Part shown: one piece after another, positions 15,601-52,133 of the stretch
Layout of the letters: each line of letters begins with the position of its first letter
How positions within the stretch are numbered: position 1 is the stretch's first letter
IMG/VR virus record: IMGVR_UViG_3300023059_000235
Span: 1-57,325 of that record
Direction: 5' to 3' (one strand)
From: a virus
Lineage: Duplodnaviria; Caudoviricetes
DNA length: 57,325 nucleotides
Position numbers and translations under genes: made by a program
The notes under the pieces: generated by a model
What the model saw: only the letters and a program-made list of their open reading frames with translations
The model's database searches: none
Told to the model about the DNA's origin: nothing

Positions 15601-18600
15601 AATGCTTAACGAACCGTTGGAGTCAGAAGAACAACGAACCCAGAAGCTAATACGGTAAGCCCGATCATTAGGGACTGCACTTAAGCTGTAATTAAAGCAG
15701 TTTACAGGAACCGTTGTATCCTTTCGGAAAACGGTATTTGAAATTTTGCCTGATGTAGTCGTTTTGAAGTACTGCTTCATGTCATAGCTATAATGGCTAA
15801 TCCACTTATCAGGGTTCGCTAAATTGTAATCAGGAATTAACGAATCACTATCATTTTCCGCTTTAATAGATTCATCTAATTTGTTCAGTGAAGTATTAAA
15901 GGTCTTAGTTTGTGAAGCTGTAACTTCATCTAATTTTGCATTTGTAGCGTAGTTATTTAGAGCTTGAGCAGTGTTAAAGATATTCTTCTCTACATCTGTC
16001 ATACCAACTTCAAGCTTAGATGTGCGCTGTGCTAATGCATCCCTTTCAGTAACATATGTTTGCTTAAACTCAGTGAGATTAGCAGATACTTGATCAAAAG
16101 CTGCATTAAAGTCATATGGACTCGCAATCCAGCTGTCAGTAGTTATAAATTCCCCTTTAACCAATACGGCCCAGTAAACAGTACCCACACTTTGCTTGTC
16201 TGCAATAGGCTTGTTTAACATATAGAAATGGAGACCTTTCCCAGTACCGGCAGATGTTTTTGTAAAAGTAATTTTGCTAATAATCTTGCCTGCAGTGTTC
16301 AAGACCTGCTGTACAAACTGACTTCCACCACCTGCATAAACAGCTAAATTTGAATTAGTGTCACCATTTCCTCTCGTATGTTCAGCACACCATAAAAGTG
16401 TGTACTTAGCTCCTACTTCCCAGTCTCCCCCCATTTTATAAATATGATGAGGATAAGAAGACCCGTTATATGTACCAACAACATTAGAGTTGATCAATAG
16501 ATTGGTGCCAGCTGGTGCAGACTTGTTTAGATTTGCTGATAAGGTATTTGACTGTTCAGTAACTGCTTTAATTTGTCCAGCTTGTTCTGTTACTTGTGAT
16601 TTTGTCGTTTCTAATGCTTCAGATGAGGCTTTTTTACTTACTTCGGAATTGGTTAAAATGAGGTCATTTCTTAGCTTTGAGATGTCTATACTTTGAGAAG
16701 ACAAGGAATCACCTTGCTTCTTAACATCTGCTTGAGTAACTTTAATTGCCTCAGCATTTGCGCTTAATGAGCTTTGAACATCACGTGGGCTAGGGCTCCA
16801 TGCTGTCGCTTTATTACCAGCTTCAATCTGTAATTTTTGTATTGTGGGGATACGTCCCGTTGTGTAAGTTCCATAAAATTCAATGGTGGATTCCGTTGTA
16901 CTGCCAGTATGTAATTTAGGAAAAACAGTCACTTCATATTTTTGAAATTCATTAGCTTTCGTTGCAGTGACAGGCGTAGAGAAATTATGCGCTGACCCAT
17001 TTGAGGAATACACGAGTACTGCACCTGCAACTGGTACACTCATTTCAAAAGAAATAGTAACCGGCTTATCTAAATTTTCATCATAAAAAGCTTTGAGCTC
17101 TTTACTTCGCTCATACATTAAGTATTCACGACTCGTTGCAGCTGATGAGGTTCTTGGAGCTTCAGAATTGGCAACGACATTGACACCACCAACCTTAATA
17201 TTTTGCACAGCTGCTGTTATGTCCGTTGAAACACGGCTCATTGCACTATCAAGATCACTCTTAGTAACTGTTTTCAATAACGCTTCGGCGTTATTTTTAA
17301 CACCAGTTTCTGTATTCTCTACCCTAGCTTCAAGTTTACTAGTCCGTTCTGCTTCAGCATCTGTGCGATTAGTTGCGGTCTTGAACAAATCATTAGCAGT
17401 TGCAGTTGAATCATTTGCAGAAGCTAAAGAATTGTTATCTTCAATGATAATGAAGTTAAGCTGACTTATACCTGGTTGAGCTGAATAGTTACCAATAAAC
17501 ATTGGCGCATAAAATTCGGCTTGAGCGGGAAATGTACGAGGATTATCTATTGTTCCAAGCCCCGTAGCAGCACCTGTAGACTTTCCTTTCAGATAAAGTA
17601 CAACTTCTTGCCATTCACCTAAAATAGGCTTAACTGCGGACAACAAGTAGTTTGATGAACCCATGTCTGCAGCTAGATTATTTGTAGTTGTCACATACTT
17701 TGTTTGATCTGCGGTTTTACAAGCAACACCTAGATAAATACTTCCTGTTTCGCCAGAAACACGGCGGAATCGTGCGCGAACTCTATAAAGAGTATCTGGA
17801 TTAATTTTTACGAATTCTTTCCAATGAACCCAAGCTTCATCATTGCCGGCATTATTCCCAAGCTCAAGAATATAACCACCCAATGCATTTGCATCTTGAA
17901 TTACTTTAGCTTCACCAGTCGCACGCCAAGTAGTCCAATCTTCAATTCCTTTTGAAGTTACGACAGCACGAACACCAGAAGTCACTTGAGTTTGAGACTT
18001 TAAACTTAATAAATTTTGAGCCAGTGCTTCAGTAGCTTTTACCGCTGTTGTTCCAGTTTGCTGAGCTTCTGCTGCATTATTAAAAGCTAGCTTTGCCACA
18101 TCATCAGTGGACTTAATTGAAGACGTAAGGCCAGATATTTTAGTATTTGTATTATCTTCTAATGTAGATACGCTCTTTTCGACATTGATGATTTGACCTT
18201 GAACTTTTAGATTTTCTTTAGAGATACTAGTATCTAAACTAGAAAATTTTGTAGTTGTTGCCTCTTCAAATTCTGCCAAAGATTCAGTTACTTCTTGAAT
18301 ATTTGCATTTGATTGTCTGTCTGCTTCTTCTAAATCTGCTTTTGTTTGATCAATACGTAAAGATAAAGCCTTATCACCGTCAGATACGGATTTTGTGATA
18401 GTAACTAAATCTGAATCAGTTTTTGTCTTATTGGAATTGTAGTCTGTCTTAAGTTGTTCAAGCTTTTGGGCTTCTGAAACTAATTTATCATCAACAATTT
18501 TAACTGAGGCTTCAACCTTTTCTATGTATGATGCATTACCTGTTACTTGATCACGCCAAGTTTTCGGAATAGTGTCATTTACAGCGGTGACATCCCAAAC

Positions 18601-20748
18601 TTCATATGAAGCAACAATTACATCAACTGGTTTTTCAACAGAAGCAACTGGTGGATTTATACTATTGATCGGTCTGAAATGACCTTGAATTGTCGATCCG
18701 ATATCCGGCCCACACTTGATTACAGAATAGTAAATTTCAAATTTACCCGTTCCTTCTACACTACCAAGAACTTTCAACAATCCACCAGTTCCCAAAGCAT
18801 TGCCATAGGGTTGAAGTTTTAAGCCTACAGGTATTTTAAGGATTTGCTTTACTAAAAAAACTTTATTGGCCGCAGCAGATAGCAACGGTGTATTCGGGAA
18901 CCAGCCCGAACCTAATAAACCTGTAGATCGAATTAGGATTTCATGTGTAGAGGTAGTTGGATTGTCAGCCGACTTCGCTTGGCGTGTATATGTAGAACCA
19001 GCTTGGTTAACATATGCAGTTAAATTATTGGTTTCTTTGAAAGTAGGGTCATCACGGAGAGGTTTACCTAGTGACTGCATTCGAGCTAAATCATTAGCAT
19101 TTAAAATATTAGTATTTGCTGTATCAAGACTTGCTTGCAATTGACCTGTTTTTTCAACAACAGATTTATTTAAATCAACTACAGTTCTTTCAACACTATC
19201 AATAGCAGCCTTATTGTCCCCAATTTGAGACTGAGCTGTACTAATTTGTTCAGTAAGGGCTTTGTCTTGAGCTGCACGAGTTTTAGTTTCTTCTGAAATT
19301 AAGGCGTTTGATTTACCCAATTCATTTTGCATTTCAGAAAACTTAACTTCAAAACTTTGGGTAATTGCTTCCTTATCATTTGATCGTGCTTCAGCTTCAG
19401 CTAGAAAGCCCGCAACGACTTTCTTATCTAAGTCCACATACTGAGCAGCTACTTCATCGACCTTTTTAACAGCAGCTTCTGTCTGATTTACGATTGGTTC
19501 AATTTTCTGATTAATGAGAGTATTAGTTTCGTCACCCAAAGCTACTTTAGCTTCATCAATCATTTGACCAGCTTTAACTAAGTTTTGATCAATATCTTGT
19601 TTAAGAGCAGCCTTAGTTTGGTCTATAACAATTAGTGCTTCAGCAACCTGTTTTTTACGGTCTATAACTTCTTGATCTGCTACTTTTTTTGCATTCTCAG
19701 CGGCTAAGCGAATTTCATCAGAATCACTTCGCACATCAGCAATGATTGAATCAGTTTCTCTTTTGATTAAGCCAATCTTGTCATCAAGATCTTTCTCAGC
19801 ACGTATAGCGCGTTGCTGAGCCTCTGCCACCAATTCCTCATTTACCTGAATTGATTGATCAATACGTTGATTTGCTTCATCTAAGCGAATATTTGCATCA
19901 TTAGCATGCTGTTCAACAATGAGTTTGGTATCAATAATTTCTTGATCAATATAAGCCCGAACTTCATCAACTTTATCTTGTGCAATTTGACCTACTTCTT
20001 TTACTTGGTCATGGATTTTTTGCACTTCTTCATCGATGTGATTAATACCTTCTTCAAGCAATTTATAAGCATCAGAGTCTTTAATATTTTCAATTAACTC
20101 CTCTACTTCTTTTATTTTTTCATCAATTTCTTGGCTTACTTGATCTTTATTTTCATCAATTTTTTCACCTTGTTCTTTTAATTCTTCTTTTAGTTCCTCC
20201 AATTTATCAATTGCATCTTGAAGCGCACCTTGAAATGCTTTGGGATCAATAGGAATTCCAGCAACCGTAAGAGTTGTACCAACGGCCATACTACCCGCAA
20301 CAGCACTATTTCCAGCTACTGAAGTATCTCCTACAACAGTACTATTTCCCGTTAAGGTGCTGTTACCAGTTTGTTGTGTATTGGCTTGTACATTCATCAA
20401 TGGTGTTTTGATCGATACAGTTGTGCCAGAATCTACTTTTAAATTTTCTTTAGAGATAAATTCAATATTGTCTTGTCGAATACGGCGCACACCTACAATC
20501 GCGCCGTCTCCATGACTGACATAACTATGGATTACTGGACGTTCTTCATTGCCATTTTCGAAGAAGACATACACATCTTCTCCGTCAATAATTTGAATTT
20601 CTGTATCTAAGTCACTATCACCTACCGGGTAAGCGAAAGTTGCAGTAATACCTTCGCTTGCTCCATCAGTTAAACCATGAATGTGTACTTGTGCAGTACG
20701 ACCTTTTGCGTTGTAACTTAAAATCTTTGCACGTGTGAAACCATTCAT
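9661..20748 (-). CDS. Giant baseplate spike/central fibre: gp5/GpV OB-fold and beta-helix, coiled coils, several carbohydrate-binding-like modules, ILEI/GG domain, lambda-J-like (DUF1983) C-terminus
   Basis: N-term RAKILSY..AQVHI..GEDVYVFFENGNEERPVI; C-term GKYVMGMDNNG..IGFQADKIFF..PFIIQDNQVIM..VYDDNNVVRVKLGLW; internal duplicated modules. Confidence 0.85.
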   Translation of the reverse strand: MNGFTRAKILSYNAKGRTAQVHIHGLTDGASEGITATFAYPVGDSDLDTEIQIIDGEDVYVFFENGNEERPVIHSYVSHGDGAIVGVRRIRQDNIEFISKENLKVDSGTTVSIKTPLMNVQANTQQTGNSTLTGNSTVVGDTSVAGNSAVAGSMAVGTTLTVAGIPIDPKAFQGALQDAIDKLEELKEELKEQGEKIDENKDQVSQEIDEKIKEVEELIENIKDSDAYKLLEEGINHIDEEVQKIHDQVKEVGQIAQDKVDEVRAYIDQEIIDTKLIVEQHANDANIRLDEANQRIDQSIQVNEELVAEAQQRAIRAEKDLDDKIGLIKRETDSIIADVRSDSDEIRLAAENAKKVADQEVIDRKKQVAEALIVIDQTKAALKQDIDQNLVKAGQMIDEAKVALGDETNTLINQKIEPIVNQTEAAVKKVDEVAAQYVDLDKKVVAGFLAEAEARSNDKEAITQSFEVKFSEMQNELGKSNALISEETKTRAAQDKALTEQISTAQSQIGDNKAAIDSVERTVVDLNKSVVEKTGQLQASLDTANTNILNANDLARMQSLGKPLRDDPTFKETNNLTAYVNQAGSTYTRQAKSADNPTTSTHEILIRSTGLLGSGWFPNTPLLSAAANKVFLVKQILKIPVGLKLQPYGNALGTGGLLKVLGSVEGTGKFEIYYSVIKCGPDIGSTIQGHFRPINSINPPVASVEKPVDVIVASYEVWDVTAVNDTIPKTWRDQVTGNASYIEKVEASVKIVDDKLVSEAQKLEQLKTDYNSNKTKTDSDLVTITKSVSDGDKALSLRIDQTKADLEEADRQSNANIQEVTESLAEFEEATTTKFSSLDTSISKENLKVQGQIINVEKSVSTLEDNTNTKISGLTSSIKSTDDVAKLAFNNAAEAQQTGTTAVKATEALAQNLLSLKSQTQVTSGVRAVVTSKGIEDWTTWRATGEAKVIQDANALGGYILELGNNAGNDEAWVHWKEFVKINPDTLYRVRARFRRVSGETGSIYLGVACKTADQTKYVTTTNNLAADMGSSNYLLSAVKPILGEWQEVVLYLKGKSTGAATGLGTIDNPRTFPAQAEFYAPMFIGNYSAQPGISQLNFIIIEDNNSLASANDSTATANDLFKTATNRTDAEAERTSKLEARVENTETGVKNNAEALLKTVTKSDLDSAMSRVSTDITAAVQNIKVGGVNVVANSEAPRTSSAATSREYLMYERSKELKAFYDENLDKPVTISFEMSVPVAGAVLVYSSNGSAHNFSTPVTATKANEFQKYEVTVFPKLHTGSTTESTIEFYGTYTTGRIPTIQKLQIEAGNKATAWSPSPRDVQSSLSANAEAIKVTQADVKKQGDSLSSQSIDISKLRNDLILTNSEVSKKASSEALETTKSQVTEQAGQIKAVTEQSNTLSANLNKSAPAGTNLLINSNVVGTYNGSSYPHHIYKMGGDWEVGAKYTLLWCAEHTRGNGDTNSNLAVYAGGGSQFVQQVLNTAGKIISKITFTKTSAGTGKGLHFYMLNKPIADKQSVGTVYWAVLVKGEFITTDSWIASPYDFNAAFDQVSANLTEFKQTYVTERDALAQRTSKLEVGMTDVEKNIFNTAQALNNYATNAKLDEVTASQTKTFNTSLNKLDESIKAENDSDSLIPDYNLANPDKWISHYSYDMKQYFKTTTSGKISNTVFRKDTTVPVNCFNYSLSAVPNDRAYRISFWVRCSSDSNGSLSIPVMYGYADGLWTIARYSAVSVPAAQLPAKDGNWYFVSTVANFTSNTIIQQLRFGIALGHTGTSGWWEVQGYKVSPVLNESDIDSTIVKSSILIDYSSKSDTTKAISAATESLEAKFRQKFGDLWTNSSATLDSTRYTKTETNQAIAEESKIIKAAISSSGGDNIIKNGDFSKPLEISNWRQNAVVAGSLFELYKDSNGTTWGHFKSTNTTTYFKGFIETITLAEGLEANQKYTLSFKAKSLTAAQTQILLILHRRDAAGSNNQIGTTWNNISTDKEMLCTYTFDTNLIDLQYINVILYAQVGFAPDFLIREVQIEKGELATGFRKNPRELEKGLEANATAIEGTKADVKKNGEQIASISENYVTLKSAVDNNKLSADGKFQEINSTISDNQQNTTQSITNLESGYKQLNQDLGQVFNYRVYSCGWNGFFTGIKNLKGEIKSVASARGFSVHVLAADGSIATSTRYDTYAAITNATAMSNAIAAIPNDTFVIVTNYDSIGVNIATVKNALISLGANPFTIDQITGRDAYILIGQKGIGSGRGIELHSTPDTGPNGAKQIMLAVQVVSGIPIGLANNSGNLQKVLENHAQILQEKITRSDAKEVFAEEIKVFKAQLDILRYSEENWILLGDDTKNLSIATGTNRTVAVWELQYKHKEIPIDKGDPVVARIKYTAAAGLVGATCSIQFHGATYSIGLPTFIVAASGEIELTGIFPSDVKATAFEAIPLGLRFDNAPSGGTFTITNMFISRGNSAPNFKGGFRSSLKQNAQFVEDTFIKADANKGVIAQQIQQYDAGVPGGLSTVVKTTKATADQTSQDLATLRNTDISQLQTSTNNLGSALENTTMLAMMITNGKLLQGDVNFKKGVNGVGLYNNAANGNVSVTRVAKSSDNPTTSTHEIEIKTIGAANPTYGGFFQLVYGRANAVFVIKYLIKLPIGYKLVIAGNSMGTGAIERFVGSAEGTGKFETYIRLIKCGAAGTFSNSGHVYVAGGSTPTATAPLVWTLAQIEQYDVTDYASADPTLQDFVSTATDSISTLTNFKESWAAKLVEMSSKLDSKNSAYILNADITNTTIDRAIAASSQKLTSEYTSAMSVQPLGSGGGKIFAKPLTWRQAITTTGTLVIKTPITINAYMTKIKISGYNYNNKEDNTFDMDLAFYAYTSTTPFYQNMTARSFGITVDETNAITKGLALALDSNNKVCILITKKDAWSYPAITVETATITHTNPPDYFKDGWSAAIETDLSVYKSVTPFTVTSAMETTAGSQAKVDIPMAQLSDIAADNKLTPVEKKQGKLVWDSLYQTDTNLRAEAVTYGISSTAYATAFSTLNTYLAALFANMNMTSTIDRNQFITNFANVHNARQELVRLISEKAKSLADSAQNSANSKSKTFTAQPTIPYAQGDIWKNGTTVSVATVGRTSGAFTASDWTKVGDITSENTSADTVKVNGVLSATVTANAAAGKQIADDVMSDLVITPTEKSALYNSYKDMESNFNRLLNLANPWGISVMAAQTAWDNLNNVSPKFFTDIISTTTTKTTLTSAQRDSLKGRINIFYTEVANLDKAVNEYLNKAAADAKDLAATTKATLERDYLTSSKTNEAIASSTERMTALYSANSQKIMASVLDTWFKDWLNKTPSGNKAEMTIVADATCRGGYALRIGNNSGNDETWINWFASLPIDDSKYYRVKYRFRRVSGTGVVYVGATCQNATKTKYVAQDNTEINDVGSSHYLVAGTAPALGTWITGTAYFKGRSAGASAGAGTLLSPKTFANKAAFFTPVFIGNYSGKAGEVDLDFIDIEDADNIADFENFKTTYTTDVGAYAGALQTLVSVYGQNAIKLKSQADLIDGVKGKYVMGMDNNGVFSGMSMVSEQTNGTVISSIGFQADKIFFTTGASSTKYMPFIIQDNQVIMNSDVFIKNLTAANFKVKSLTADLFNVDKLSAIAGELGTLTTYKDPAKPTGARMVLSGSLITVYDDNNVVRVKLGLW

Positions 20749-38335: not shown

Positions 38336-41300
38336 TTACCAATTAGAATAATGACCGAATTCTGCTGAAACGTTACCACCCACGCTTCCACCAAAACGCC
38401 ATGAAAACTTTTTTGAAGGATCGACAGTAACACCAGGTATAACTAATTGGGGTTTGGTAAATTGGAAATCACCCCCTTTTTCTGATTGTACGAGTCCATT
38501 CCCTGTATAACCTGAAACTCCAAAAAGCGTAGCTTCTATTGGTCCAATTCCTCCCCCCATTTCAAGTTTTGAACTTGTTCTTGCGATAGCACCTGAACCA
38601 CAATCTAGTGCATGTTTCGAAGGTTTGCCATTAGGATCAAGACCGACCCCTCCACCAAGTCCAACACCAAGTTTACCAGTAACTTCTAATGTTCCATTGT
38701 TATAACTAATTGAAGCACCGCCTCCTACACCATAATAACCTTCAACACTTAATGACCATAAACCATATGGGTCAATATAATTCACAGGATTATTCCCAAC
38801 ATAAGTATAAGTATTTACTCCACCAGCTAATCCAATCGGGTCAGGTTGTGTATAACGACCTACTGTTCCATCAAAATATCTATTCCAGTTATACCAAAGG
38901 CCAGATTCCACATCATAATATTGACCTGGTAAACCAATATTAAATTGTCCAATACTGCTTTGAATCACATTACTGTCATAACTGTTATTTTGAGATTTCC
39001 ATACAATAGCCTTAGAAGCATTAGTTAAAACTTCTGGTCTTCCTAAATGGTCATTATGTACAAAATTTAATGTATTGTTGCGGACCACGCCAATTACCTG
39101 TCCATACAACCAAACATAAGCTGTAGTGATATTAATATCAGAAGTATTTGATTCACCTAATAATCTGCCATCGGGAGAATAAATATAATTTACGTTGCCA
39201 GCTCCACCAGTTTTTCTAGTTCGTAAATTAAATACATCATAATCATAACTTGTACTGTTGCTTCCCGCCTTAACAGTTTTTAGGCGATTAAAGCCATCAT
39301 AGCTGTAATCTACAGTCCCACCATGACCAGTTTTTTTAATTAGATTTCCAAGCACATCGTAGCTAAAGGTTTTTGCTTCAGTTGTTGTCGTACTGGCTAA
39401 TCTATTTCCAACATTAGTTTGATAATTTGTTGTTAGGTTAGTATTTCCTACCCGAGTACTTCGATTTGAATTTTTATCAAAAGTCCAACTTTCTGTATAT
39501 TGTGTTGAAGCGGCTTTAGTTAGTTGTCCTATAACATCATAAGTATAAGTAGCTGATCGATTGACTGCTAAATTGTTATCAATATTGCTAATCAAGTTAT
39601 TTGTATTATAACTATGACTTAATTTTTGGATTGCCTCTGTATTAATCCCAGTAAGTCGATAATCTTTATCAAAACTTGTGGTACGAGTTAAACCATTACC
39701 ATATGTCCAGCTTTTAACACCACCATAAGGTTCATAAGTAATATTTTTTACAACATCTTTATCAGCGCCTTGTATACGAACTTTAACAGTATTAATTCTG
39801 CTCAAAGTGTCATAACCATATGAAACTTTGTAGCTATCATTTGCAAAGCTTTCACTGATTAAGCGTCCATAGTTATCATATGCCCAGTTAGTTTGATAAC
39901 TTGTACCATTTATAACTCTGGTCTGAACAATCATTTGTCCAGCTTTGTTATATCCATATCCTGAAGAGCTTGTTCCATCCGAAGTTCCACACAAACGACC
40001 TTTACCATTTGTACAATTATCATATACCCACGCATGTACTTGAGTACCGGTTTGCGCTTTAGTTTGTCTTCCTAATGTATCGTAAGTATATGTGGTTACT
40101 ATATTATTAGCACGAGTCAGCTGAATTACGTTTCCATCGACATCATAACTATATTTTGTTAATCCTTTGTCTGGGCTTTGAGATGATAATAAGTTTCCAA
40201 AACCATCATAGGTATAACTTGTAGTATTACCTTTACCATCTTTTATGGAAGTCAAATTACCATTGGCATCATAGATTGATTGGGTCGTTGAACCATCTGG
40301 TCTTTTCACTTCAGTTAAATAGTTATTTGCATCATAGGTATATGTAGTGATTTTTCCAAAAGAGTCAGTTTCTTTGATAATATTTCCATTTCCATCATAT
40401 TCATAAGTGAAGTTTTGCGCGTTATTCCCTTTATTTGCTGTCGTCCATCCAAGTTGATTATGCTCTTTCATCTGACTAAAGCGAATATTAGAACCTTCCT
40501 TATAATCTACACGCAATAACTTTCCTAATTTAGAATAAGTATAATATTGTCCACTTAAGATCGTGTTACCTGTCCCGTTTGTTATACTCGCAACTGTACC
40601 GTTATCATTATAATTAATCGTCTCACGTATCCCGTTAGTTTCTGTTTGCGTAATTCCAAAAGCTCCATATTGATACGTGGTTGTACGAATTTGGTCACTG
40701 GCTAGAGTTTCTTTTTTATTTATGACACGTCCACGTGCATCATAGCTCAACTCAATTACAAACCCATTTGGATCAGTAATTTTACCGACATTACCCAAAC
40801 CATCATAATTAGAATAAGTTGTAATATGACCTAATGGGTTTTTATATTGAATAAGATTCCCTATAGCATCATATGTATAAGTTGATGTTTTTTCATTAGT
40901 ATTTATTGCTACATCTTTAAGCATACCATTGCTATGCAATGTATAACCATAACCAATTGTTTTACATGTGGTTGTTCCAACTTTACTACACGATTTGATA
41001 CTTTTAATACGATTTTTAGCAGTATCAGTTGAAGAATAATATGTATATGTTATGTCAGAGGCCACGATATTATTCTTTAGATTTTCGACTTTACTAATTA
41101 AATATGGTGAGTTAAGCCAAGTGTATTTGGTAACTGATTTACTCGCAGGTGTACTTTTTTCTATCAACAGCCCATTTGCATCACGTCGATAAGTAGTTTC
41201 AATTCCATTCCAATCAATTTCAGAACTAACATACCCATTATTATCATATTTAGTTACAGCATTACTATTTGGACAATTATTTACACCACTACGTTCGATT

Positions 41301-42409
41301 TTAGTCAACTTATCTTTATTATCATTTGTATAAATATACTTAGAAACAGCACCTAAAGGATTAGTTACAATAGTATAATTATTGCCATACTCTAATTTAA
41401 AAGTTTGAGTTCCATCACTACGGCCACTTTGTATTGTTCTTTCACCATCGTAGAGATAAGTTGAATAACGTTTTCCATCAATTGAAATTCCACTAAGTTG
41501 ATTCTCACTTGCTCCATTTTCTCCATAATGGAATGTTTTTTTTCCTAAATTATTTGGGTATATAATTTCTATTAGACGTTGACCACTCCATTTGTAAGTA
41601 TAAATATTACCTGCTGGATCAGTTATCTCAGTTGTAGAATTACCTGCGGGTTTTATTTTAATAGTTTTACCATTCGTGTGGGTAATCGTAGTTATCCATG
41701 TCGCTGAATCTCTTGATTGAACCCATCCAATACCGTGTAAATTTTTTCTACTTTTTAAAGAACCACTATGAAGCAATGGTTGTGTACCAATGACGCTAAC
41801 GTCATATGTTTCAACGTCACCATTTGGTAAATAAATTGGATTTGAAACTTGATCATATTCTCGTAATTCCCTAACTAGAGAAAAGGAACCATCTGCCAAT
41901 TCTCGCCCCAACTTTACTTTATTTTGGTAAATATAAACACCAGCCTCATTCATTGTTATTTCATAATTATTTTTCCATCTTTTTCCAAAGGTTCGTATGG
42001 ATAGATCAAAACCGATGTCATTTTCAATATTTCTATTTTTATCTTGTGAATAATAAATTTCAGAATAGTTTAACGGCATTTCCCAATTCGTTGTAAAAAC
42101 AGCTTCTTCATGCAATTTCTCACCCGTATTAATTCTTACTGGATTTGGAGTTTGGCAATCACTTGATTCATCATTCTTAAAAAAGCTAGCTGTTGGGTTC
42201 GAATTATAAAAAGGATGAATCCCTTTATGCATATCTTGATAAAAGATTTGTGAGGTTGAATTTATCTGGTTTATGTCTAATACAGGATCTGGCGTACCGT
42301 AGAATGTTAAAGGCGGTAAAGTGCCAACATATATCGGTTCTACGGCTAGTACAGAACTACTCACGATACTTGTAGTTACTAATATCGAAATAATTTTTTT
42401 CAATTGCAT
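38336..42409 (-). CDS. rhs: Rhs/YD-repeat polymorphic toxin with Sec signal peptide and unknown Gly-rich C-terminal domain
   Basis: Signal MQLKKIISILVTTSIVSSSVLA; NPVRINTGEK; many YDxxG repeats; core HNDHLGRP..GQYYD.ESGLWYNWNRY..GRYTQPDPIGL..NPVNYIDPYGL. Confidence 0.92.
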   Translation of the reverse strand: MQLKKIISILVTTSIVSSSVLAVEPIYVGTLPPLTFYGTPDPVLDINQINSTSQIFYQDMHKGIHPFYNSNPTASFFKNDESSDCQTPNPVRINTGEKLHEEAVFTTNWEMPLNYSEIYYSQDKNRNIENDIGFDLSIRTFGKRWKNNYEITMNEAGVYIYQNKVKLGRELADGSFSLVRELREYDQVSNPIYLPNGDVETYDVSVIGTQPLLHSGSLKSRKNLHGIGWVQSRDSATWITTITHTNGKTIKIKPAGNSTTEITDPAGNIYTYKWSGQRLIEIIYPNNLGKKTFHYGENGASENQLSGISIDGKRYSTYLYDGERTIQSGRSDGTQTFKLEYGNNYTIVTNPLGAVSKYIYTNDNKDKLTKIERSGVNNCPNSNAVTKYDNNGYVSSEIDWNGIETTYRRDANGLLIEKSTPASKSVTKYTWLNSPYLISKVENLKNNIVASDITYTYYSSTDTAKNRIKSIKSCSKVGTTTCKTIGYGYTLHSNGMLKDVAINTNEKTSTYTYDAIGNLIQYKNPLGHITTYSNYDGLGNVGKITDPNGFVIELSYDARGRVINKKETLASDQIRTTTYQYGAFGITQTETNGIRETINYNDNGTVASITNGTGNTILSGQYYTYSKLGKLLRVDYKEGSNIRFSQMKEHNQLGWTTANKGNNAQNFTYEYDGNGNIIKETDSFGKITTYTYDANNYLTEVKRPDGSTTQSIYDANGNLTSIKDGKGNTTSYTYDGFGNLLSSQSPDKGLTKYSYDVDGNVIQLTRANNIVTTYTYDTLGRQTKAQTGTQVHAWVYDNCTNGKGRLCGTSDGTSSSGYGYNKAGQMIVQTRVINGTSYQTNWAYDNYGRLISESFANDSYKVSYGYDTLSRINTVKVRIQGADKDVVKNITYEPYGGVKSWTYGNGLTRTTSFDKDYRLTGINTEAIQKLSHSYNTNNLISNIDNNLAVNRSATYTYDVIGQLTKAASTQYTESWTFDKNSNRSTRVGNTNLTTNYQTNVGNRLASTTTTEAKTFSYDVLGNLIKKTGHGGTVDYSYDGFNRLKTVKAGSNSTSYDYDVFNLRTRKTGGAGNVNYIYSPDGRLLGESNTSDINITTAYVWLYGQVIGVVRNNTLNFVHNDHLGRPEVLTNASKAIVWKSQNNSYDSNVIQSSIGQFNIGLPGQYYDVESGLWYNWNRYFDGTVGRYTQPDPIGLAGGVNTYTYVGNNPVNYIDPYGLWSLSVEGYYGVGGGASISYNNGTLEVTGKLGVGLGGGVGLDPNGKPSKHALDCGSGAIARTSSKLEMGGGIGPIEATLFGVSGYTGNGLVQSEKGGDFQFTKPQLVIPGVTVDPSKKFSWRFGGSVGGNVSAEFGHYSNW

Positions 42410-44643: not shown

Positions 44644-44962
44644 ATGTTTCACCTGTTACTGAAGTACCCAATTTGTCAGCTATTTGATTAAGATCAATTT
44701 TCACATTCATGATGCTTAAATAAATATGAACGGTCTCAAAGCCCTCTGTTTGAGAATAAAGTGCCAACTGGTCAGAGTTGAGCTCAGATAAAATAGGTAG
44801 ATCCTTTTTCATCTTAATTAGAAAGCTATCTGCCACCCTTGCATCGAGTGGTGTCATTAGCAAAGCATAAAGAGGTGCACCAAAATTAGATCCATATTTC
44901 CCATTAACAGGATGATATAGCCAGTACTCAACCATGTTTATAATTGTTTTAGCCGTGATCAT
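44624..44962 (-). CDS. gp25/GpW-like baseplate-sheath initiator (P1 PmgA-like)
   Basis: WLYHPVNGKYGSNFGAPL..L..P. Confidence 0.65.
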   Translation of the reverse strand: MITAKTIINMVEYWLYHPVNGKYGSNFGAPLYALLMTPLDARVADSFLIKMKKDLPILSELNSDQLALYSQTEGFETVHIYLSIMNVKIDLNQIADKLGTSVTGETYDINAS

Positions 44963-45318
44963 TAGGAAGTTGCTCTATTGGAAAAAATAGTCAAAAGTTT
45001 TACTAGAATTGCAGTGCCAATCTGATAAGTAGAAAAAATAGAGAAATAGACAATAAAGATCCAAAGCGAGACACTTAATGCATCAAAATAGTTAGCAACG
45101 TTATAAATTCGCCAATCAACTAAAATAATTGTGATCAATACGCATGCCATGCATGCGAAGTACATCCATCTTATTTCTTTAAATAAAAGGTTAATTGGAA
45201 TTTGGCGAAATTGTTTTATTGATGCCGCTTTATTTTTACCATTCCACCCTGTTATGAAGTAAAGATAAGCAGAAAAAGCAAGAATTAAGACAATATCTAT
45301 ACCGATTTGAATTTGCAT
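44962..45318 (-). CDS. Three-TM membrane protein heading the baseplate operon (possible holin)
   Basis: Three hydrophobic segments; late-type promoter upstream; function is inferred only. Confidence 0.5.
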   Translation of the reverse strand: MQIQIGIDIVLILAFSAYLYFITGWNGKNKAASIKQFRQIPINLLFKEIRWMYFACMACVLITIILVDWRIYNVANYFDALSVSLWIFIVYFSIFSTYQIGTAILVKLLTIFSNRATS

Positions 45319-45346
45319 GACACTACCCTTTATTAGCATTTTTATA

Positions 45347-45387: not shown

Positions 45388-45486
45388 AAAGAATAAAACC
45401 ACTATCTAGCGGTCTTATAAATTTTTAAATTCTTTAACACATTTTTTTAATAATTGTATTTCAATAAGGCAATCTAACTCCCAATA

Positions 45487-45514
45487 AAAAAGGCTGCAAT
45501 TTATGCAACCTTTT
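45487..45514 (-). terminator. Intrinsic terminator
   Basis: AAAAAAGGCTGCA-ATTTA-TGCAACCTTTT. Confidence 0.65.
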
Positions 45515-45535
45515 CTTCAAAAATTCTTAAGCATT

Positions 45536-45754
45536 CTATGCAATTGCTGAATCCATTTTTCGTTGGAAACGTTCAGCATCTGCACGAGAAACTGAAACAA
45601 ATTTACCTGTTGGTCTCATTGATTTAACAGCACTACGATGCATTTTAGCTAATTTTATTTGCATCTCTTTTTGCCATTCTTGCAATGTTAAACCAGCTTC
45701 TTTAGCACGTTTTTCCTGCAACCCAAGAGGCATATTTAATATAACTTTATTCAT
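45536..45754 (-). CDS. 72-aa protein overlapping the Hdf-ART stop; candidate inhibitor/partner
   Basis: ATG 45754 with strong SD GAGGAGG; 8-nt overlap with the upstream gene. Confidence 0.6.
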   Translation of the reverse strand: MNKVILNMPLGLQEKRAKEAGLTLQEWQKEMQIKLAKMHRSAVKSMRPTGKFVSVSRADAERFQRKMDSAIA

Positions 45755-47063
45755 TATCATCCTCCTCAAGATAAATCCAAATTTGACCATTTCCAATAGA
45801 TTCATCTGTCAACGAATCTGCTATGTTTAATACTTTAAACGAAGTGGAATTTTTAAACAAGACTTCACTTTCTGTATCTGAATTTTCACTAATCCACTCA
45901 ATGTGTTTTCCGCTTTTAGATTGAATAATTAATCTTATTTTACGGTGTGAAAAAAGATCATATCCGACATTAGCAGCTAAAAAACCTTCAGCAGTATAAG
46001 TCTCATAATTAAGAATAGAATTGAGTAATTTAGGTGGTAAATCTTGTCTAGAAAAAACAACTTCCTCAGTAAAGTTAGGCAATTTATCTAATGCTTGACG
46101 CAATAAAGAAACACCTTTTAATTCAATTGTAGTTTCTTCTTTTGTATAAATTGATGATTGATGTAATACACCATTAATTGCTCCGCATCCGACCCCTGAC
46201 CAATAACGAATTGCAATTTGTTCTGGTAAAGTCAGATCAAATTCCTTCGCCATTTTTACAATTTCATCTGAATTCAAAAGATCAAATTTGATACTTTCCA
46301 ATTGTTTTTTCGGTATCCATTCTTCAATAATCTTTTCCTGCTCTTCCAAGGAAAGTGGATGATCACTTCCTAAATATTTTGGCACTATATCCTTCCACAA
46401 CATAGAGTTATCTATAGACAATTCTACATCAAGAGGCTCATTCGATAAGGAATTTTGTGCGAAAGTATTTACATTGTTATCAGTTGATATAGATGCGATT
46501 TCACTAATCGACTTTCCCAATTCAGATTGACCAACCTCCGTAGTAGAACTAATACCAAGCTGATGTTTGGCTAATTCAATTTTTTCCAAAAGCTGGTCCC
46601 GTTGCGCCGTTTGTTTTGCTAATTCTTCATCAAGTATTTGTTCTTGTTCTTGAACTTCTTTAGCCTTTTGTTCTACAGAAGAACGGCGTGGAGGTAGACG
46701 CACTTTTTCACGTTTGTTTTGGTCCTGAATTTTCGATTGTGCTTCCCTTATAAGCTTAGAAACACCATTAACGGCATTATCAAAAGTAAGCTTATAGTCA
46801 TCACTAAAATCACCAGACAATACAACCACTTTATCATTAAGTTCTGCTTTGACCACATCTGCTAAAGCTCGGATATAAAGTGTTAGTGTTGCACCACCAG
46901 AAAAGAAAAAAGTTACTGGTAAAACACTGATACCAGCAACGCGTTTAATTTTGCGAAACTCTTGTGTAACTACAGTTTGGCCTGTTGCTTTTTCCAATGC
47001 AGATTGGATCTTTTTAATATATGGAGTGGTAGCTGTTACAGCTGCAAGATTAAGACTGCCCAT
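45747..47063 (-). CDS. Hdf/DarA_N-like head protein fused to a C3/VIP2-type ADP-ribosyltransferase domain
   Basis: N-term IKRVAGISVLPVTFFFSGGATLTLYIRALADVVKAELNDK plus coiled coil; C-term AIRYWS..INGVL..LRQALDKLP..VFSR..EGFLAAN..GKHIEWIS..ESEVLF..SFKV. Confidence 0.75.
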   Translation of the reverse strand: MGSLNLAAVTATTPYIKKIQSALEKATGQTVVTQEFRKIKRVAGISVLPVTFFFSGGATLTLYIRALADVVKAELNDKVVVLSGDFSDDYKLTFDNAVNGVSKLIREAQSKIQDQNKREKVRLPPRRSSVEQKAKEVQEQEQILDEELAKQTAQRDQLLEKIELAKHQLGISSTTEVGQSELGKSISEIASISTDNNVNTFAQNSLSNEPLDVELSIDNSMLWKDIVPKYLGSDHPLSLEEQEKIIEEWIPKKQLESIKFDLLNSDEIVKMAKEFDLTLPEQIAIRYWSGVGCGAINGVLHQSSIYTKEETTIELKGVSLLRQALDKLPNFTEEVVFSRQDLPPKLLNSILNYETYTAEGFLAANVGYDLFSHRKIRLIIQSKSGKHIEWISENSDTESEVLFKNSTSFKVLNIADSLTDESIGNGQIWIYLEEDDNE

Positions 47064-47090
47064 GAATAATAACCTCATATAAATGAGGCT

Positions 47091-47173: not shown

Positions 47174-49453
47174 TTAATCAAGATTAATGTCTTTATAAAC
47201 TAATGAGTAACAATTAGTTTCACTTAAGAATGCTTGTTTAACAATGATTTTAGGTTCGTAGGAGGACTTCCTATTATTAAGCAAGCTTATAATATTCTTA
47301 AGTAATTTCTTTTTATCTTCAGGAAAATTTAATCCTAATGTTATAGATATTACAGAAGCATTAATTTTAGATCTATCTGGATTTGGATAATCATATTTAT
47401 CAAATTCCACCTTATTTCTTAGTGAAGTAAAAAGACGGACTTCATTTTCATAAGACCAATCTTTATTTTTCGTTAAAAGAAATTGATTAAAAATATAAAG
47501 ATCTTTATCTTTTAGACGTTTAATATCTTCTGCATAACTTACTTCACCAATACCAAAACCATAAGGTAAATCACCTGAAAAGAAATATTCGACCATTATA
47601 CCTTGGTGCTGCTGTGCATAGTGTGACCACATAAGCATTGAGTTTTCATTTTTTGAAAAAGAACAAATAAAATATTTATCAAGAATGTGTGTTTCAGGTT
47701 TAATTTTATTTATATCAGGCAATTCAATTGGATCATTTAGCTGACTTTTGCTCGGTAAAAAAAAGTATTGGTTAGTTAATGAATCAATTGTATTAATATT
47801 GAATGGAGAATATTTATAAAGAGAATTACAACGATTATTTATAGAATCATCCCATTTAAAACAATTAGTTAAACCTACATTCAACTCCTCCCTTAATTTT
47901 AAATATTCTTTAAAAGGAAATTTAAAATTTTTGACATACTTTGAACAATCTAAATAATTTTGCACAATCATATAATCAATTTCTTTTGAATTTTTCATTG
48001 ACTTATAAGCATTTTGAAAACCATCAAGAGCTTTTTTAAATTTACCTTTTCTTTGATAACACACAGCTAATGTATTGTATGTACTCATAGTTGGTAAATT
48101 ATTTTCATGATACTTTTCTAAGAGTTGTATAGCTTTTTCAATTTCTTTAAATTCTATACACAGACTACAATAGTCAATTAAAGAATCATGTTCGATACAG
48201 TCTAAATCATAAGACGTTTCATAGTTATTAAATCTATTTAATTTACTATTTTTAAGAGTGTTTAATTTTAGCTCATTAAGCCTCCCCCTAAATAAATCAT
48301 AATTTTTACTTTTTAGAATCTCAGGATACTTCAATATTTTTTCAGCTTTCTTATATGAGAGAAAACTTTCTAAACCTAAGTTTAATGGATTATCACACAA
48401 AATTTCTTTTTCTATTTCACTAACATATAGATTAAACAACAGATTATAGTATAGAATTTTAATATTATTTGTTTCATAAAATTCAGAACTAAATTTTGAA
48501 GTAATGTAATTCATTATTTCTTGATTTATTGGTAATGCGAGTTCTTGCTGAGATAGAAGATAATACAAATTAGATTCAGGATGATTAATTCCACCAGTTT
48601 TATCAGCTTTTAATTCAAATATTTCAATAACATCATTATATTTCTTAGCCAAATATGCTCTTTTAATTAATAAATGCGCAGATATTTGCTGTCCATTATT
48701 ATTCGATTTATCTAAAAAAATATTATAAATTTCTTCATCATTATCATTTATAAACTTATCCACTTGAAAATCATTTACTTTAGAAATAGCTTGATCGAGC
48801 GAAATTAATTTTTTATCATAATAATCTTTAATAGTATTTACATCAATTTTCATTGATTTATTAATATTATCTATTCCTTGATCAAACTCAGATAATAAAA
48901 AATGTATTCTACTTAGTATACTCCTAATTTTATCATTTGAAATAATTCCACTTTTTGAAACTAATTTTTTTAAGAATTTTAAGTTAAATTCTGAAATTTT
49001 ATTAAAATCTTCTAATCTACGTATATTATTTAATTTTAGATTTACTTTCTCTATATCATTATTATCAACATCTATTTTTAAAGATTGTATAAGATTGTCA
49101 ACGCAATAAGTATAATTATATACTAACCAATGTGCTTCAGAATTTAATTCATCCTCTTCCAGTGCTCTTATAAAAAAGCTAATAATTGAAGTGCTGTTTG
49201 CTCTATCAATATAAATTTTACTTGCGATCTTTCCTAAAAAAATAAATGCTTTTGCTTTTGTACCTTCACGTTTAACAATTTCATCAAATACATATTCATT
49301 TTTTTCATTTTTTAAATCTAGAACAAAATAAAAGTAACCAATGTAAAACTTATGATCTGAACTTTTCCATTCCTGTTCTAAGAATGTTAATTTTGAAAAT
49401 TTATCACGTTTTATCCAATTTATAATATTTTTTTCTATTTCATTACTTTCCAT
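47174..49453 (-). CDS. TPR-repeat plus DUF2971 protein; candidate defence gene
   Basis: TPR-like YNTLAVCYQRKGKFKKAL; LYKY..LNDPIE..ICSFS..LMWSHYA..HQG..TKNKDWSYENEVR; visibly AT-richer than its neighbours. Confidence 0.8.
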   Translation of the reverse strand: MESNEIEKNIINWIKRDKFSKLTFLEQEWKSSDHKFYIGYFYFVLDLKNEKNEYVFDEIVKREGTKAKAFIFLGKIASKIYIDRANSTSIISFFIRALEEDELNSEAHWLVYNYTYCVDNLIQSLKIDVDNNDIEKVNLKLNNIRRLEDFNKISEFNLKFLKKLVSKSGIISNDKIRSILSRIHFLLSEFDQGIDNINKSMKIDVNTIKDYYDKKLISLDQAISKVNDFQVDKFINDNDEEIYNIFLDKSNNNGQQISAHLLIKRAYLAKKYNDVIEIFELKADKTGGINHPESNLYYLLSQQELALPINQEIMNYITSKFSSEFYETNNIKILYYNLLFNLYVSEIEKEILCDNPLNLGLESFLSYKKAEKILKYPEILKSKNYDLFRGRLNELKLNTLKNSKLNRFNNYETSYDLDCIEHDSLIDYCSLCIEFKEIEKAIQLLEKYHENNLPTMSTYNTLAVCYQRKGKFKKALDGFQNAYKSMKNSKEIDYMIVQNYLDCSKYVKNFKFPFKEYLKLREELNVGLTNCFKWDDSINNRCNSLYKYSPFNINTIDSLTNQYFFLPSKSQLNDPIELPDINKIKPETHILDKYFICSFSKNENSMLMWSHYAQQHQGIMVEYFFSGDLPYGFGIGEVSYAEDIKRLKDKDLYIFNQFLLTKNKDWSYENEVRLFTSLRNKVEFDKYDYPNPDRSKINASVISITLGLNFPEDKKKLLKNIISLLNNRKSSYEPKIIVKQAFLSETNCYSLVYKDINLD

Positions 49454-50420: not shown

Positions 50421-52133
50421 ATGCTACAAATATGTACAGGTAAGCTATTTACCCGAGAAATTGAATATCAAAATAATTTAAAAGGAATTATTTATACTAA
50501 TTATAATTTATTCTCAGATCAAAAAATTGAGACTAAAGCTGGAACAATTTCTTTTGCTGAAAACTCCAATGGGCCAAACACTATACTTTACGAGATTGAA
50601 GAGCTAATTGAAGCAAATGGAAATGGACCAGGTGTGCTAGCTTCACATGGGATACGTTCTTTAATACTCGATTTCTCTACAATTTTTTCTTTTGTTTTAA
50701 ATTGTACGGCATCTCCGAGTTATTCTTTAACTGAAAGATTACTAAGTGAACAACCTGGAGTCTCTACTCATACCTCACCCAATAAAATGATTAAGAAAGT
50801 TTTTGATAAACGTGTTTTTTACGAGGAAAATGATGAAAATGAATTAATCAAAATCACAAATCAAATTATTGGTTTGAAACGGAAAACTTTTTTAGGTGTT
50901 ATGAGTTCTATCAGAACTTATGTTACTGGAATGCACCGTATTTCAGATGATTTTGAGTTAGCTTATACCTTATTAGTTGCTTCAATCGAATCATTAGCAC
51001 AGAAATTCGATGGTCATCAATCTACATGGTCTGATTATGAAGAAAGTAAGAGAAAAAGAATTGATAAAGCTTTAGCGAATGCAGACCAAACAATTAAAAA
51101 TGATGTAAGAAACGCAATATTGAGCATAGAACATACATCTTTGGCTAGGCGTTTTAAAGATTTTGCATTAGAACACATTACACCTGACTTTTTCCGCCTT
51201 GAAGCAAATGATGTAATTAATCCTATTACAAGAAGTGATTTACCTATTGCACTTTCTAATTCTTATATAGCTCGTTCTAAATATGTTCATAATTTAGAAA
51301 AACTACCAAAGAATCTTACATTTAATACATATTCAGATACCTGTAATCATGACAATAAAACATGGTTAACCTTACAAGGATTATCTAGATTAGCTAGACA
51401 TGTCATAATTGAATTTATAATGCGTCAGCCTACTGTTGAAAAAGAAAAATATAATTACCATCTTGAACGTTCAAATATAACAGTTATGCAAATGGCTCCA
51501 GAATTTTGGATTCACCATATAGATTTTAGTAGCGGAGCTGGTATACAAAAATTAGAAGGCTATTTATCCCAGCTTGAGAAATTTTTAACAGGTGTACCAA
51601 ATGCTACAGTAACCGAAATTTCAAATGTTCTAACTGAATTTGAATCGCAAATTAATAATTTAAAATCTGCTGATAAAAAAGCTTTTTTAGCACTTTATAT
51701 TATTTATAATTATTATATAAAAAAATCTCAAAGATTGAAAAATGTAGTCGAATTTACCAATAAACATGAAAAAATTATCTTAAATCCTTGTACAGAAGGT
51801 CTTATTGTAAATTCATTATTAAACTTACCTTTTCAGTGGGAAATAGAAGTTCATCATGAGTGTTTAAAAAAATATTTTTCAGAAAGAAATCAAAAGTTAA
51901 AGATTAAATGCCCACAAGTCATTGAAACTGGAATGCTTCTTATATTAGCTGAGCGTTATAGAAAAGATGGTAATGAGTCGAAAGCTCTTGAACTAATTGT
52001 CATGGCAGTGGAAAACCTACCTTCTCATAAGGAGTTACGCGAATTCGAAACAGAATACAAAAGCTCACCCCGTACTATTAATGTTTCAGAGATCCTTTTT
52101 TCAAACCATATTGATACTCCCTCCAATGATTAA
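50421..52133 (+). CDS. ApeA-like HEPN RNase domain protein; candidate defence gene
   Basis: AYTLLVASIESLA and YIARSKYVH (R-x4-H) HEPN motifs. Confidence 0.65.
   Translation: MLQICTGKLFTREIEYQNNLKGIIYTNYNLFSDQKIETKAGTISFAENSNGPNTILYEIEELIEANGNGPGVLASHGIRSLILDFSTIFSFVLNCTASPSYSLTERLLSEQPGVSTHTSPNKMIKKVFDKRVFYEENDENELIKITNQIIGLKRKTFLGVMSSIRTYVTGMHRISDDFELAYTLLVASIESLAQKFDGHQSTWSDYEESKRKRIDKALANADQTIKNDVRNAILSIEHTSLARRFKDFALEHITPDFFRLEANDVINPITRSDLPIALSNSYIARSKYVHNLEKLPKNLTFNTYSDTCNHDNKTWLTLQGLSRLARHVIIEFIMRQPTVEKEKYNYHLERSNITVMQMAPEFWIHHIDFSSGAGIQKLEGYLSQLEKFLTGVPNATVTEISNVLTEFESQINNLKSADKKAFLALYIIYNYYIKKSQRLKNVVEFTNKHEKIILNPCTEGLIVNSLLNLPFQWEIEVHHECLKKYFSERNQKLKIKCPQVIETGMLLILAERYRKDGNESKALELIVMAVENLPSHKELREFETEYKSSPRTINVSEILFSNHIDTPSND

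Follow-up and report, generated by a model that had tools for sequence, protein, structure and literature searches.

An Hdf-type protein of an Acinetobacter myovirus joins an ADP-ribosyltransferase-fold domain with altered active-site motifs and is followed by a small partner gene

We analysed a gene pair in a viral DNA stretch of 57,325 bases (IMG/VR virus record IMGVR_UViG_3300023059_000235, referred to below as the window), which is estimated to be 81% complete and holds the late region of an Acinetobacter myovirus. The larger gene encodes a protein that joins an N-terminal module resembling Hdf, a head protein of phage P1, to a C-terminal domain with the fold of ADP-ribosyltransferases (ARTs); the smaller gene encodes a 72-amino-acid partner. 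We propose, with a probability of roughly 0.6, that the larger product is a head-internal protein of the P1 Hdf type whose C-terminus serves as a dock for exchangeable effectors, and that the partner masks the cleft of the ART domain. The C-terminus is swapped between related loci and the partner co-varies with the ART domain. Judged by the ratio of nonsynonymous to synonymous substitution rates (dN/dS), both genes of the pair are under purifying selection. We infer, from the analogy with P1, that the protein would be packaged and ejected; its target and its role, in host takeover or in anti-defence, are putative.

The gene pair

The two genes and the signals around them are as follows.
45747..47078, minus strand: Hdf-ART fusion gene, 443 amino acids from the first ATG, stop codon at 45747..45749
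45536..45754, minus strand: gene of the 72-amino-acid partner, coding sequence 45539..45754, stop codon 45536..45538; isoelectric point (pI) of the product 10.5, C-terminal motif ERFQRKMDSA
45761..45767, minus strand: Shine-Dalgarno sequence GAGGAGG, 6 nucleotides upstream of the partner ATG and inside the end of the Hdf-ART reading frame
45486..45516, minus strand: hairpin and U-tract after the partner stop codon (-17.1 kcal/mol, z -3.4)

Gene callers, and an earlier note made from the letters of the window, start the fusion gene at M6 (47063), giving a protein of 438 amino acids; this is probably the true start. The earlier note had also described the small reading frame as overlapping the stop codon of the large gene, and this is what the sequence contains: the partner ATG lies inside the final codons of the Hdf-ART frame, with an overlap of 8 nucleotides (ATGAATAA). 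We take the partner to be translationally coupled to the Hdf-ART gene. The hairpin is probably an intrinsic terminator; a simple terminator scan did not list it.

The N-terminal part is an Hdf-type unit

The protein begins with three segments.
46794..47063, minus strand: DarA_N/Hdf-type alpha/beta domain, residues 6-95 (phrog_1620, motif D74 and N81-x-K83, AlphaFold2, Foldseek)
46551..46793, minus strand: two long helices, residues 96-126 and 135-173 (AlphaFold2), corresponding to the alpha-helical domain with which P1 Hdf binds the capsid
46359..46550, minus strand: flexible linker or junction, residues about 177-240 (pLDDT, the predicted local distance difference test score, below 50 at residues 177-200; dN/dS 0.33-0.53)

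The earlier note had proposed an N-terminal Hdf-like domain and coiled coil, together about 170 residues, and the Hdf likeness holds. Among the PHROGs, phrog_1620 ('Hdf-like antirestriction') matches residues 8-174 over 167 of its 200 positions (E 3.5e-27), and phrog_6398 matches the protein with E 1.5e-102. According to Iyer et al. 2017 (PMC5512222), an Asp together with an Asn-x-basic (NX+) motif is the signature of DarA-N domains. All 24 members of the family that we aligned carry D74 and N81, and at least 90% of them carry K83. The AlphaFold2 model of the module (pLDDT 77.7) places strands within residues 36-85 and helices at 19-32, 96-126 and 135-173, with disorder from residue 177. When this model was compared with the Protein Data Bank (PDB) using Foldseek, only one match had E <=0.001, the contracted P1 head's chain I (9vz0_I, 5.5e-5); the next was chain I of the P1 head (9ukm_I, 1.1e-3).

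In P1, Hdf and DarA are 'defence against restriction' proteins of the head interior. P1 Hdf is described as an unprocessed protein of 203 amino acids whose alpha/beta N-terminal domain lies close to the DNA and whose alpha-helical C-terminal domain rests on the wall of the capsid (PMC12810830, 2026). The solo Hdf-like proteins of other Acinetobacter stop right after the helices, and the Hdf part of the fusion is under purifying selection (dN/dS 0.13-0.18). On this evidence, we take the first 176 residues to be a complete Hdf-type unit. A capsid location of the whole protein is a reasonable inference from the P1 analogy.

A tblastn search of the Hdf-ART protein against 50,697 phage records returned just one Acinetobacter phage, so that the likeness to P1 is detectable by profile only. 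A scan of a class-wide sample with phrog_1620 matched one of the 400 genomes scored, the seed genome itself, and is uninformative on the spread of the module beyond Acinetobacter.

The two genes overlap and have a probable terminator of their own, and they lie among variable morons: a PDC-S31-like gene is found immediately upstream, and another part of the window has an Mrr-STAND gene. The pair might thus be a prophage toxin-antitoxin or abortive-infection module with an incidental Hdf-like N-terminus, and not a component of the virion. We consider this quite improbable: the N-terminus has every part of the Hdf architecture and evolves under purifying selection, solo Hdf homologues belong to the same family, the gene is on the late-gene strand immediately upstream of the baseplate genes, in the same place in all relatives, and the ART clade is fused to head proteins elsewhere.

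The Hdf module carries alternative C-termini

We collected 57 related loci, one from a genome contig and 56 from viral contigs. Their C-termini fall into three forms.
49 of 57 loci: PBECR1 nuclease C-terminus (PF18809, 4.5e-12), 46 with an intact end and 3 disrupted
5 of 57 loci: ART C-terminus, 3 intact, 1 frameshifted and 1 mostly deleted
3 of 57 loci: 468-amino-acid form with no assigned domain

The 468-amino-acid form has only a faint Pribosyltran match (E 0.04) and no PDB sequence match. Two further proteins came from a protein search: a second ART allele (P0133) and a 408-amino-acid form (P0136, L082), the latter with no match in Pfam or NCBIfam. The 408-amino-acid form contains a string HNHP...S..D of RadC/JAB-like appearance, which the blank Pfam and NCBIfam scans do not confirm. 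An Hdf-like gene is present in 26 of 247 Acinetobacter species genomes; these genes are mostly solo (168-225 amino acids), and the rest carry PBECR1, InPase or unassigned domains. The InPase C-terminus is well defined by its profile (PF18823, 2.6e-45) and occurs together with DarA_N at 62-74 bits. In the alignment, the C-terminal variants have the junction EVGQSELGK (E-x-G-Q-S-E-L-G-K) in common and diverge after it.

These forms agree with the idea, put forward in the earlier note, that the Hdf N-terminus carries variable C-terminal effectors: PBECR1, ART, InPase and unassigned domains all occur behind it. The note had gone on to call the system a MuF-like polymorphic toxin or a host-takeover or anti-defence system. 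The comparison with MuF is apt in the variable C-terminus and the cognate small downstream frame, and it fails in the carrier, from which the MuF domain (PF04233) is absent. The locus is organised as a polymorphic toxin family whose carrier is Hdf.

Decayed ART alleles also occur. In locus L055 (4001..5331) and in protein P0013 a frameshift splits the gene after the WSG motif, and in L007 (908..1854) and L099 the Hdf part and a short ART remnant are left.

The C-terminal domain has an ART fold

45750..46358, minus strand: ART-fold domain, residues about 241-443, with a helical N-lobe and a beta-sandwich (AlphaFold2, Foldseek, sequence relatives)

The AlphaFold2 model, made on residues 230-443 with 39 relatives, has a pLDDT of 92.9 and a predicted template modelling score of 0.89. 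Foldseek against the PDB returned 151 chains with E <=0.001, with XopAI on top (8e-12, TM-score 0.73), then Tre1 (6e-10); further fold matches include Vis, C3bot, Certhrax, HopU1, ExoS and VIP2. The earlier note's C3/VIP2-like ART fold is therefore recovered in the model. In a viral structure library the matches are phage ARTs, many of them joined to head-morphogenesis, minor-capsid or portal proteins.

Sequence searches lead to the same clade. An exhaustive HMMER search with the domain found 114 relatives at E <=1e-3, mostly MuF-ART proteins. Fifty of these were scanned with Pfam: 48 match ADPrib_exo_Tox (PF03496), Phage_Mu_F is found in 26 at or above the cut-off and in 3 more below it, and there is one portal fusion and one minor-capsid-2 fusion. 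The Hdf-ART protein itself has no match to PF03496 or PF01129 at E <=0.1, so its membership of the Pfam ART family is transitive only, by way of the 48 matching relatives. A phmmer search of PDB sequences found only Tre1 chains (E 0.016-0.021) besides one unrelated weak match. The domain is acidic, with a pI of 4.7. Across four Acinetobacter alleles the ART part has dN/dS values of 0.16-0.24 at dS 0.38-0.67.

Three of the four active-site motifs are altered

According to PMC6829252, the active site of R-S-E ARTs is marked by four motifs: aliph-R, arom-R, STS and [QE]-x-E. The arom-R motif is [YFL]-R-x on strand 1 and STS is S-[TS]-[STQ]. Three concordant alignments, one phmmer alignment to Tre1 and two MAFFT runs, gave the following assignments.
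46161..46169, minus strand: aliph-R position, V304-L305-H306, Arg replaced by His (MAFFT alignments)
46047..46055, minus strand: arom-R position, F342-S343-R344, Ser at the Arg column and Arg one residue late
45969..45977, minus strand: STS position, A368-A369-N370 (alignments)
45864..45872, minus strand: ExE of the ARTT loop, E403-S404-E405, kept (alignments)

The motif strings quoted in the earlier note are all present in the translation: VVFSRQ (with F342-S343-R344), FLAANVG (A368-A369-N370) and TESEVLF (E403-S404-E405). Its assignments fare differently. The replacement of the usual STS (read there as LAAN) appears as A-A-N in the alignments, and the ExE lies at the catalytic Glu column. 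VFSR, taken there for the arginine motif, is not one, since independent alignments put Ser343 and not Arg344 in the catalytic-Arg column. The note had considered only the STS to be degenerate; that loss stands, but the arom-R (Ser) and aliph-R (His) arginines are lost too, making activity more doubtful than it had assumed.

The arom-R arginine is present in 102 of 112 aligned relatives and the catalytic Glu in all 112. The altered motifs define a subclade that comprises the window's family, the short proteins P0014-P0018 and P0031 (107-211 amino acids) and the MuF-intein fusion P0019. This subclade reads x-S-R and [AS][AST][ND] at the two positions; the STS position of the other ten sequences is SAN, AAN, ASN, STN, SAD or AGN, the last in P0133. 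Six members that are only 32-51% identical to one another have 30 invariant columns, which include S-R-Q, N370 and E-x-E. Because these columns are invariant among such divergent members and the dN/dS is 0.16-0.24, the ART domain is constrained rather than decaying. The frameshifted and deleted alleles, together with the prevalence of solo Hdf-like genes in Acinetobacter, might suggest that the C-terminal domain is decaying baggage and that only the Hdf part matters, for head assembly. Given the substitution ratios, the invariant columns and the high-confidence fold model, we give this view hardly any weight.

The nearest parallel to the altered site is XopAI, a type III effector of Xanthomonas, which has likewise lost the Arg of arom-R and aliph-R and the STS serines and has kept the ExE. 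Its motifs read FTG, VLE and AAS, compared with FSR, VLH and AAN in the window. The crystal structure of XopAI is reported to have a cleft unsuitable for nicotinamide adenine dinucleotide (NAD+) that binds an arginine peptide instead (PMC6829252). Since XopAI has the same motif pattern and cannot bind NAD+, ADP-ribosyltransferase activity of the window's domain is doubtful. On the motifs, we put NAD-dependent transfer at roughly even odds. The cleft may have been altered in its cofactor or substrate, or may have turned into a binding module. The two proteins differ in that their identity is only 18-19%, the NCBIfam XopAI model (NF041404) scores 22.1 bits against a cut-off of 300, and XopAI, a plant-pathogen effector, binds its own N-terminal Arg peptide, whereas a separate small protein is the predicted ligand here. 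The resemblance is a structural and motif-level parallel only.

A more conventional explanation is an active, arginine-specific and NAD-dependent ART toxin of the C3/VIP2/Alt type that is injected from the head, with Arg344 in place of the arom-R Arg and the 72-amino-acid protein as its immunity protein. The ART fold and the ExE are kept, the motifs are conserved in the subclade, dN/dS is 0.16-0.24, and a partner predicted to plug the cleft is kept under selection. In addition, relatives with a full R / S-x-S / ExE set (loci L064 and L072) carry the same partner family, and the MuF-ART toxin EFV is reported to be active (PMC5576092). These points are opposed by the Ser in the catalytic-Arg column in two independent alignments, the His and AAN at the aliph-R and STS positions, the NAD+-unsuitable site of XopAI with the same three losses, the overall acidity of the domain (pI 4.7) and the missing Pfam ART match of the protein. 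We regard an active toxin as possible, and clearly less probable than the masked effector dock that we propose.

The partner follows the ART domain

A profile of the partner matches in 5 of 5 ART loci versus 0 of 52 non-ART loci, so that the C-termini and the downstream reading frame co-vary, as the earlier note had suggested should be checked. The partner has dN/dS values of 0.09-0.41. Outside Acinetobacter, homologues of about 30% identity occur in two unrelated phage contigs (L064 and L072), where each overlaps the stop codon of a MuF-ART gene and lies upstream of scaffold and capsid genes. They share an N-terminal L-[ND]-[LM]-P and a C-terminal RFQxK[MV]DS with the partner, and the L072 homologue scores 6.6e-13 though it was left out of profile building. 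The MuF-ARTs of these contigs retain the R, S-S-[ST] and E-R-E motifs. A wider hunt for ART-plus-partner pairs (closer alignment A4) yielded no more than three new loci, two of them viral and one from a metagenome. The ART locus L114 has no small reading frame. The small frames after the ART genes L110 and L111 have a motif-like tail by eye and were rejected as partner relatives at E 27-55.

The predicted complex of the ART domain and the partner reaches an ipSAE of 0.84 (0.83-0.84 in three runs), and the best of three controls 0.01; the partner has a pLDDT of 86 and at least 93% of the contacts are common to the runs. Among 157 solved complexes, 116 attain the mark used for ipSAE, and among 215 mismatched pairs 2 do so; these counts are only rough here, as our own alignments were used. 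The predicted interface comprises residues 113-119, 134-141, 172-176 and 66-77 of the domain (add 229 for the full protein), which coincide exactly with the arom-R, STS, ExE and aliph-R positions, and residues 59-72 of the partner, whose M67 is packed between the arom-R and STS strands. The model supports a partner that plugs the ART cleft via its conserved C-terminal tail. The small protein, taken in the earlier note for an inhibitor, is thus predicted at least to bind the ART domain, with a conserved motif in the cleft.

The same features could fit a different function, in which the domain is a non-catalytic, XopAI-like peptide-binding module and the Hdf fusion carries the basic 72-amino-acid protein into the capsid as the real injected factor. 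XopAI is the top structural match (TM-score 0.73) and the sole NCBIfam match (7e-5, far under the cut-off), has the same motif losses with the ExE kept, and is described as binding an Arg-containing peptide in its cleft. In the predicted complex it is the conserved Arg/Lys-rich tail of the partner that lies in the cleft; partner and domain have pI values of 10.5 and 4.7, and partner homologues without any ART are found on 103 conjugative plasmids. However, the same partner family stands behind MuF-ARTs with intact R, STS and ExE, which inhibition fits better, and the partner has no match in Pfam, PHROGs, PADLOC, NCBIfam or the ESM Atlas. Delivery of the small protein as cargo therefore seems unlikely to us.

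In the one plasmid examined, pAB_CC (NZ_KF889012, L073 4001..4228), an orphan partner homologue has no ART within 4 kb. Such orphan copies on plasmids mean that the small protein may serve some separate function. An adjoining 94-amino-acid ParB_N gene follows the pAB_CC homologue.

Comparison with known systems

Head-packaged ARTs, MuF-ART fusions and small downstream 'immunity' frames have already been published (described in PMC9503650 and PMC5576092). Like the MuF polymorphic toxins (Jamet et al. 2017), among them EFV, the window's protein combines a head-associated N-terminal carrier, a variable C-terminal toxin and a small downstream reading frame proposed as immunity, and MuF-ARTs have homologues of both its ART domain and its partner. 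Unlike them, it has an Hdf-type carrier, no Phage_Mu_F match, and altered NAD-site motifs.

The likeness to P1 lies in the alpha/beta DarA_N-type domain with its D and N-x-basic motif and the alpha-helical part behind it, in the DarA-like and DdrB-like genes of the same phage, and in the P1 head chains as the top fold match. P1 Hdf has no C-terminal effector, whereas about 265 residues, linker and ART fold, are added here; in contrast to P1, the window's Hdf-type gene stands by the baseplate genes, outside a darA operon.

DarA-N, PBECR1, InPase and ART are among the domains of polyvalent proteins predicted to be packaged and injected (Iyer et al. 2017, PMC5512222). Polyvalent proteins hold many such domains in a chain, whereas here there is one effector per polypeptide, exchanged between alleles. 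Passages of Iyer et al. 2017 stress ARTs of the H-Y-D type (Tox-ART-HYD2), and the window's domain belongs to the R-S-E clade.

Tre1, an effector of the Serratia type VI secretion system (Tre1-Tri1; PDB 6DRE/6DRH), is, among solved structures, the closest in sequence to the ART part (phmmer E 0.016) and has a cognate ART-neutralising protein, Tri1; unlike the window's domain, it retains Y-R-G and S-T-S. The partner has no detectable kinship with Tri1, and phmmer of the fusion protein gave no PDB chain beyond two Tre1 chains and one unrelated weak match. Tri1 is a large enzyme-fold protein, not one of 72 amino acids.

Genomic setting

The window encodes a portal protein, terminase, sheath, tube, baseplate proteins and a 3695-amino-acid fibre, almost all on the minus strand. 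Its closest named phage is vB_AbaM_ABMM1, with 83.6% identity across 42% of a 3.5-kb query. Two genes near the portal gene recall P1.
940..2514, minus strand: DarA-like gene, 524 amino acids (Pfam DarA_N 5.3e-22; phrog_1926, 'released from the phage upon host infection'), adjoining the portal gene
2..940, minus strand: DdrB-ParB protein gene, running off the window (PF18763, 2.2e-35), beside the portal gene

Together they form a P1-like Dar set in an Acinetobacter myovirus. The DarA-like protein would be the capsid partner of the Hdf module.

Directly upstream of the Hdf-ART gene, a 759-amino-acid gene (47174..49453, minus strand, 25-30% GC) encodes TPR repeats and DUF2971 and matches the PADLOC candidate defence family PDC-S31 (7.9e-32). 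Because it is present in the ART loci L003 and L004 but absent from L005 and L055, we regard it as an independent moron outside the cassette. After the effector locus there is a membrane protein (phrog_13717), of 176-196 amino acids in PBECR1-type loci (L011 4982..5512) and 118-147 in ART loci (window 44962..45339); in the PBECR1-type loci it has an additional N-terminal stretch of about 55 residues that is missing from the ART loci.

Within the tail and baseplate module, 38336..42409 (minus strand) encodes a 1357-amino-acid RHS-repeat protein (RHS_repeat 2.1e-53, Rhs_assc_core at residues 1155-1217), and the approximately 140 residues past the core could be a toxin tip. A single 3695-amino-acid frame (9661..20748, minus strand) has baseplate-spike, tail-fibre, CBM_4_9, ILEI and tail-tip domains; considered as a DarB analogue, it was rejected and is a tail fibre or spike protein. 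On the opposite strand, 5780..8482 (plus) encodes 900 amino acids with an Mrr-type restriction endonuclease domain and an nSTAND1 NTPase. This gene has no match in PADLOC and PHROG scans and is likely a prophage-borne defence gene. A 570-amino-acid frame on the same strand (50421..52133, plus) matches nothing in Pfam, PHROGs, PADLOC or NCBIfam.

Discussion

We propose the following course of events for the masked effector dock. Together with the DarA-like protein that the phage itself encodes, the N-terminal alpha/beta domain and the helices would attach to the inside of the capsid wall, as they do in P1, and the linker would suspend the effector in the DNA-filled head. The Hdf-ART protein would then exit with the DNA at infection. 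The ART domain would have been acquired from the clade of phage ARTs fused to MuF, portal and minor-capsid proteins, together with the small downstream partner gene of that clade. Most likely, the partner would bind the ART cleft through its ERFQRKMDSA tail and mask the domain in the producing or lysogenic cell, in an immunity-like manner.

Several observations weigh against this proposal. Packaging rests on the analogy with P1, and the gene adjoins the baseplate genes, about 40 kb away from the DarA-like gene. The TM-scores of the N-terminal module to the P1 chains are low (0.38-0.42), and the Hdf-ART protein scores 15.2 bits with Pfam DarA_N (PF18788), below the cut-off of 27 bits; the alignable relatives L079 and L081 pass with 62-74 bits. 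Three of the four NAD-site motifs are altered in the pattern of XopAI, which cannot bind NAD+, and if the ART domain is inert, an 'immunity' role of the partner is less needed. The partner complex is a model score. L007 retains an intact partner despite its deleted ART, and L055 retains one beside a frameshifted ART. A partner homologue with 63% identity (P0132) is found on 103 conjugative plasmids, 102 of Acinetobacter and one of Klebsiella, and the small frames after the ART genes L110 and L111 are not detectably homologous to the partner profile.

Packaging of effectors in the head is known for T4 Alt and has been proposed for MuF toxins and polyvalent proteins; the relation of the P1-type Dar proteins to these has so far been unclear. 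Within a single genus, the Hdf module carries no fewer than five alternative payloads at its C-terminus, and an effector-plus-partner cassette common to Hdf and MuF carriers is now documented. We found no description in the literature of Hdf as a carrier of alternative effectors, of an Hdf-ART fusion or of this partner family; DarA-N fusions may already be depicted in figures or supplements of Iyer et al. 2017. In the P1 head, 55 DarA-Hdf pairs are reported to line the inner capsid, and they are absent from heads emptied of DNA (PMC12810830). Because the P1 head places so many pairs on the inner capsid, a phage could deliver many more copies of an effector on Hdf than on portal-associated MuF proteins.

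By extension of these analogies, and as a speculation that we hold to be rather improbable as a whole, the Hdf capsid-lining proteins could make up a second polymorphic system for delivering effectors that does not depend on MuF, loads tens of effector copies per head and trades effector-plus-inhibitor cassettes with MuF, portal and minor-capsid carriers; the ART cleft would no longer use NAD+, and the orphan partners on plasmids would act as decoy immunity. If this were true, the orphan homologues of the 72-amino-acid protein on about 100 Acinetobacter conjugative plasmids would neutralise the effector when such phages infect cells that bear the plasmid and thus provide an anti-phage defence against an injected protein.

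The ART variant, with the ExE kept and the NAD-binding residues lost, and its predicted cleft-plugging partner offer a test case for XopAI-like 'pseudo-ARTs'. Since such prophages are common in A. baumannii, the system is relevant to host range and phage therapy, and the orphan partner genes on widespread conjugative plasmids of this species hint at a conflict between phages and plasmids.

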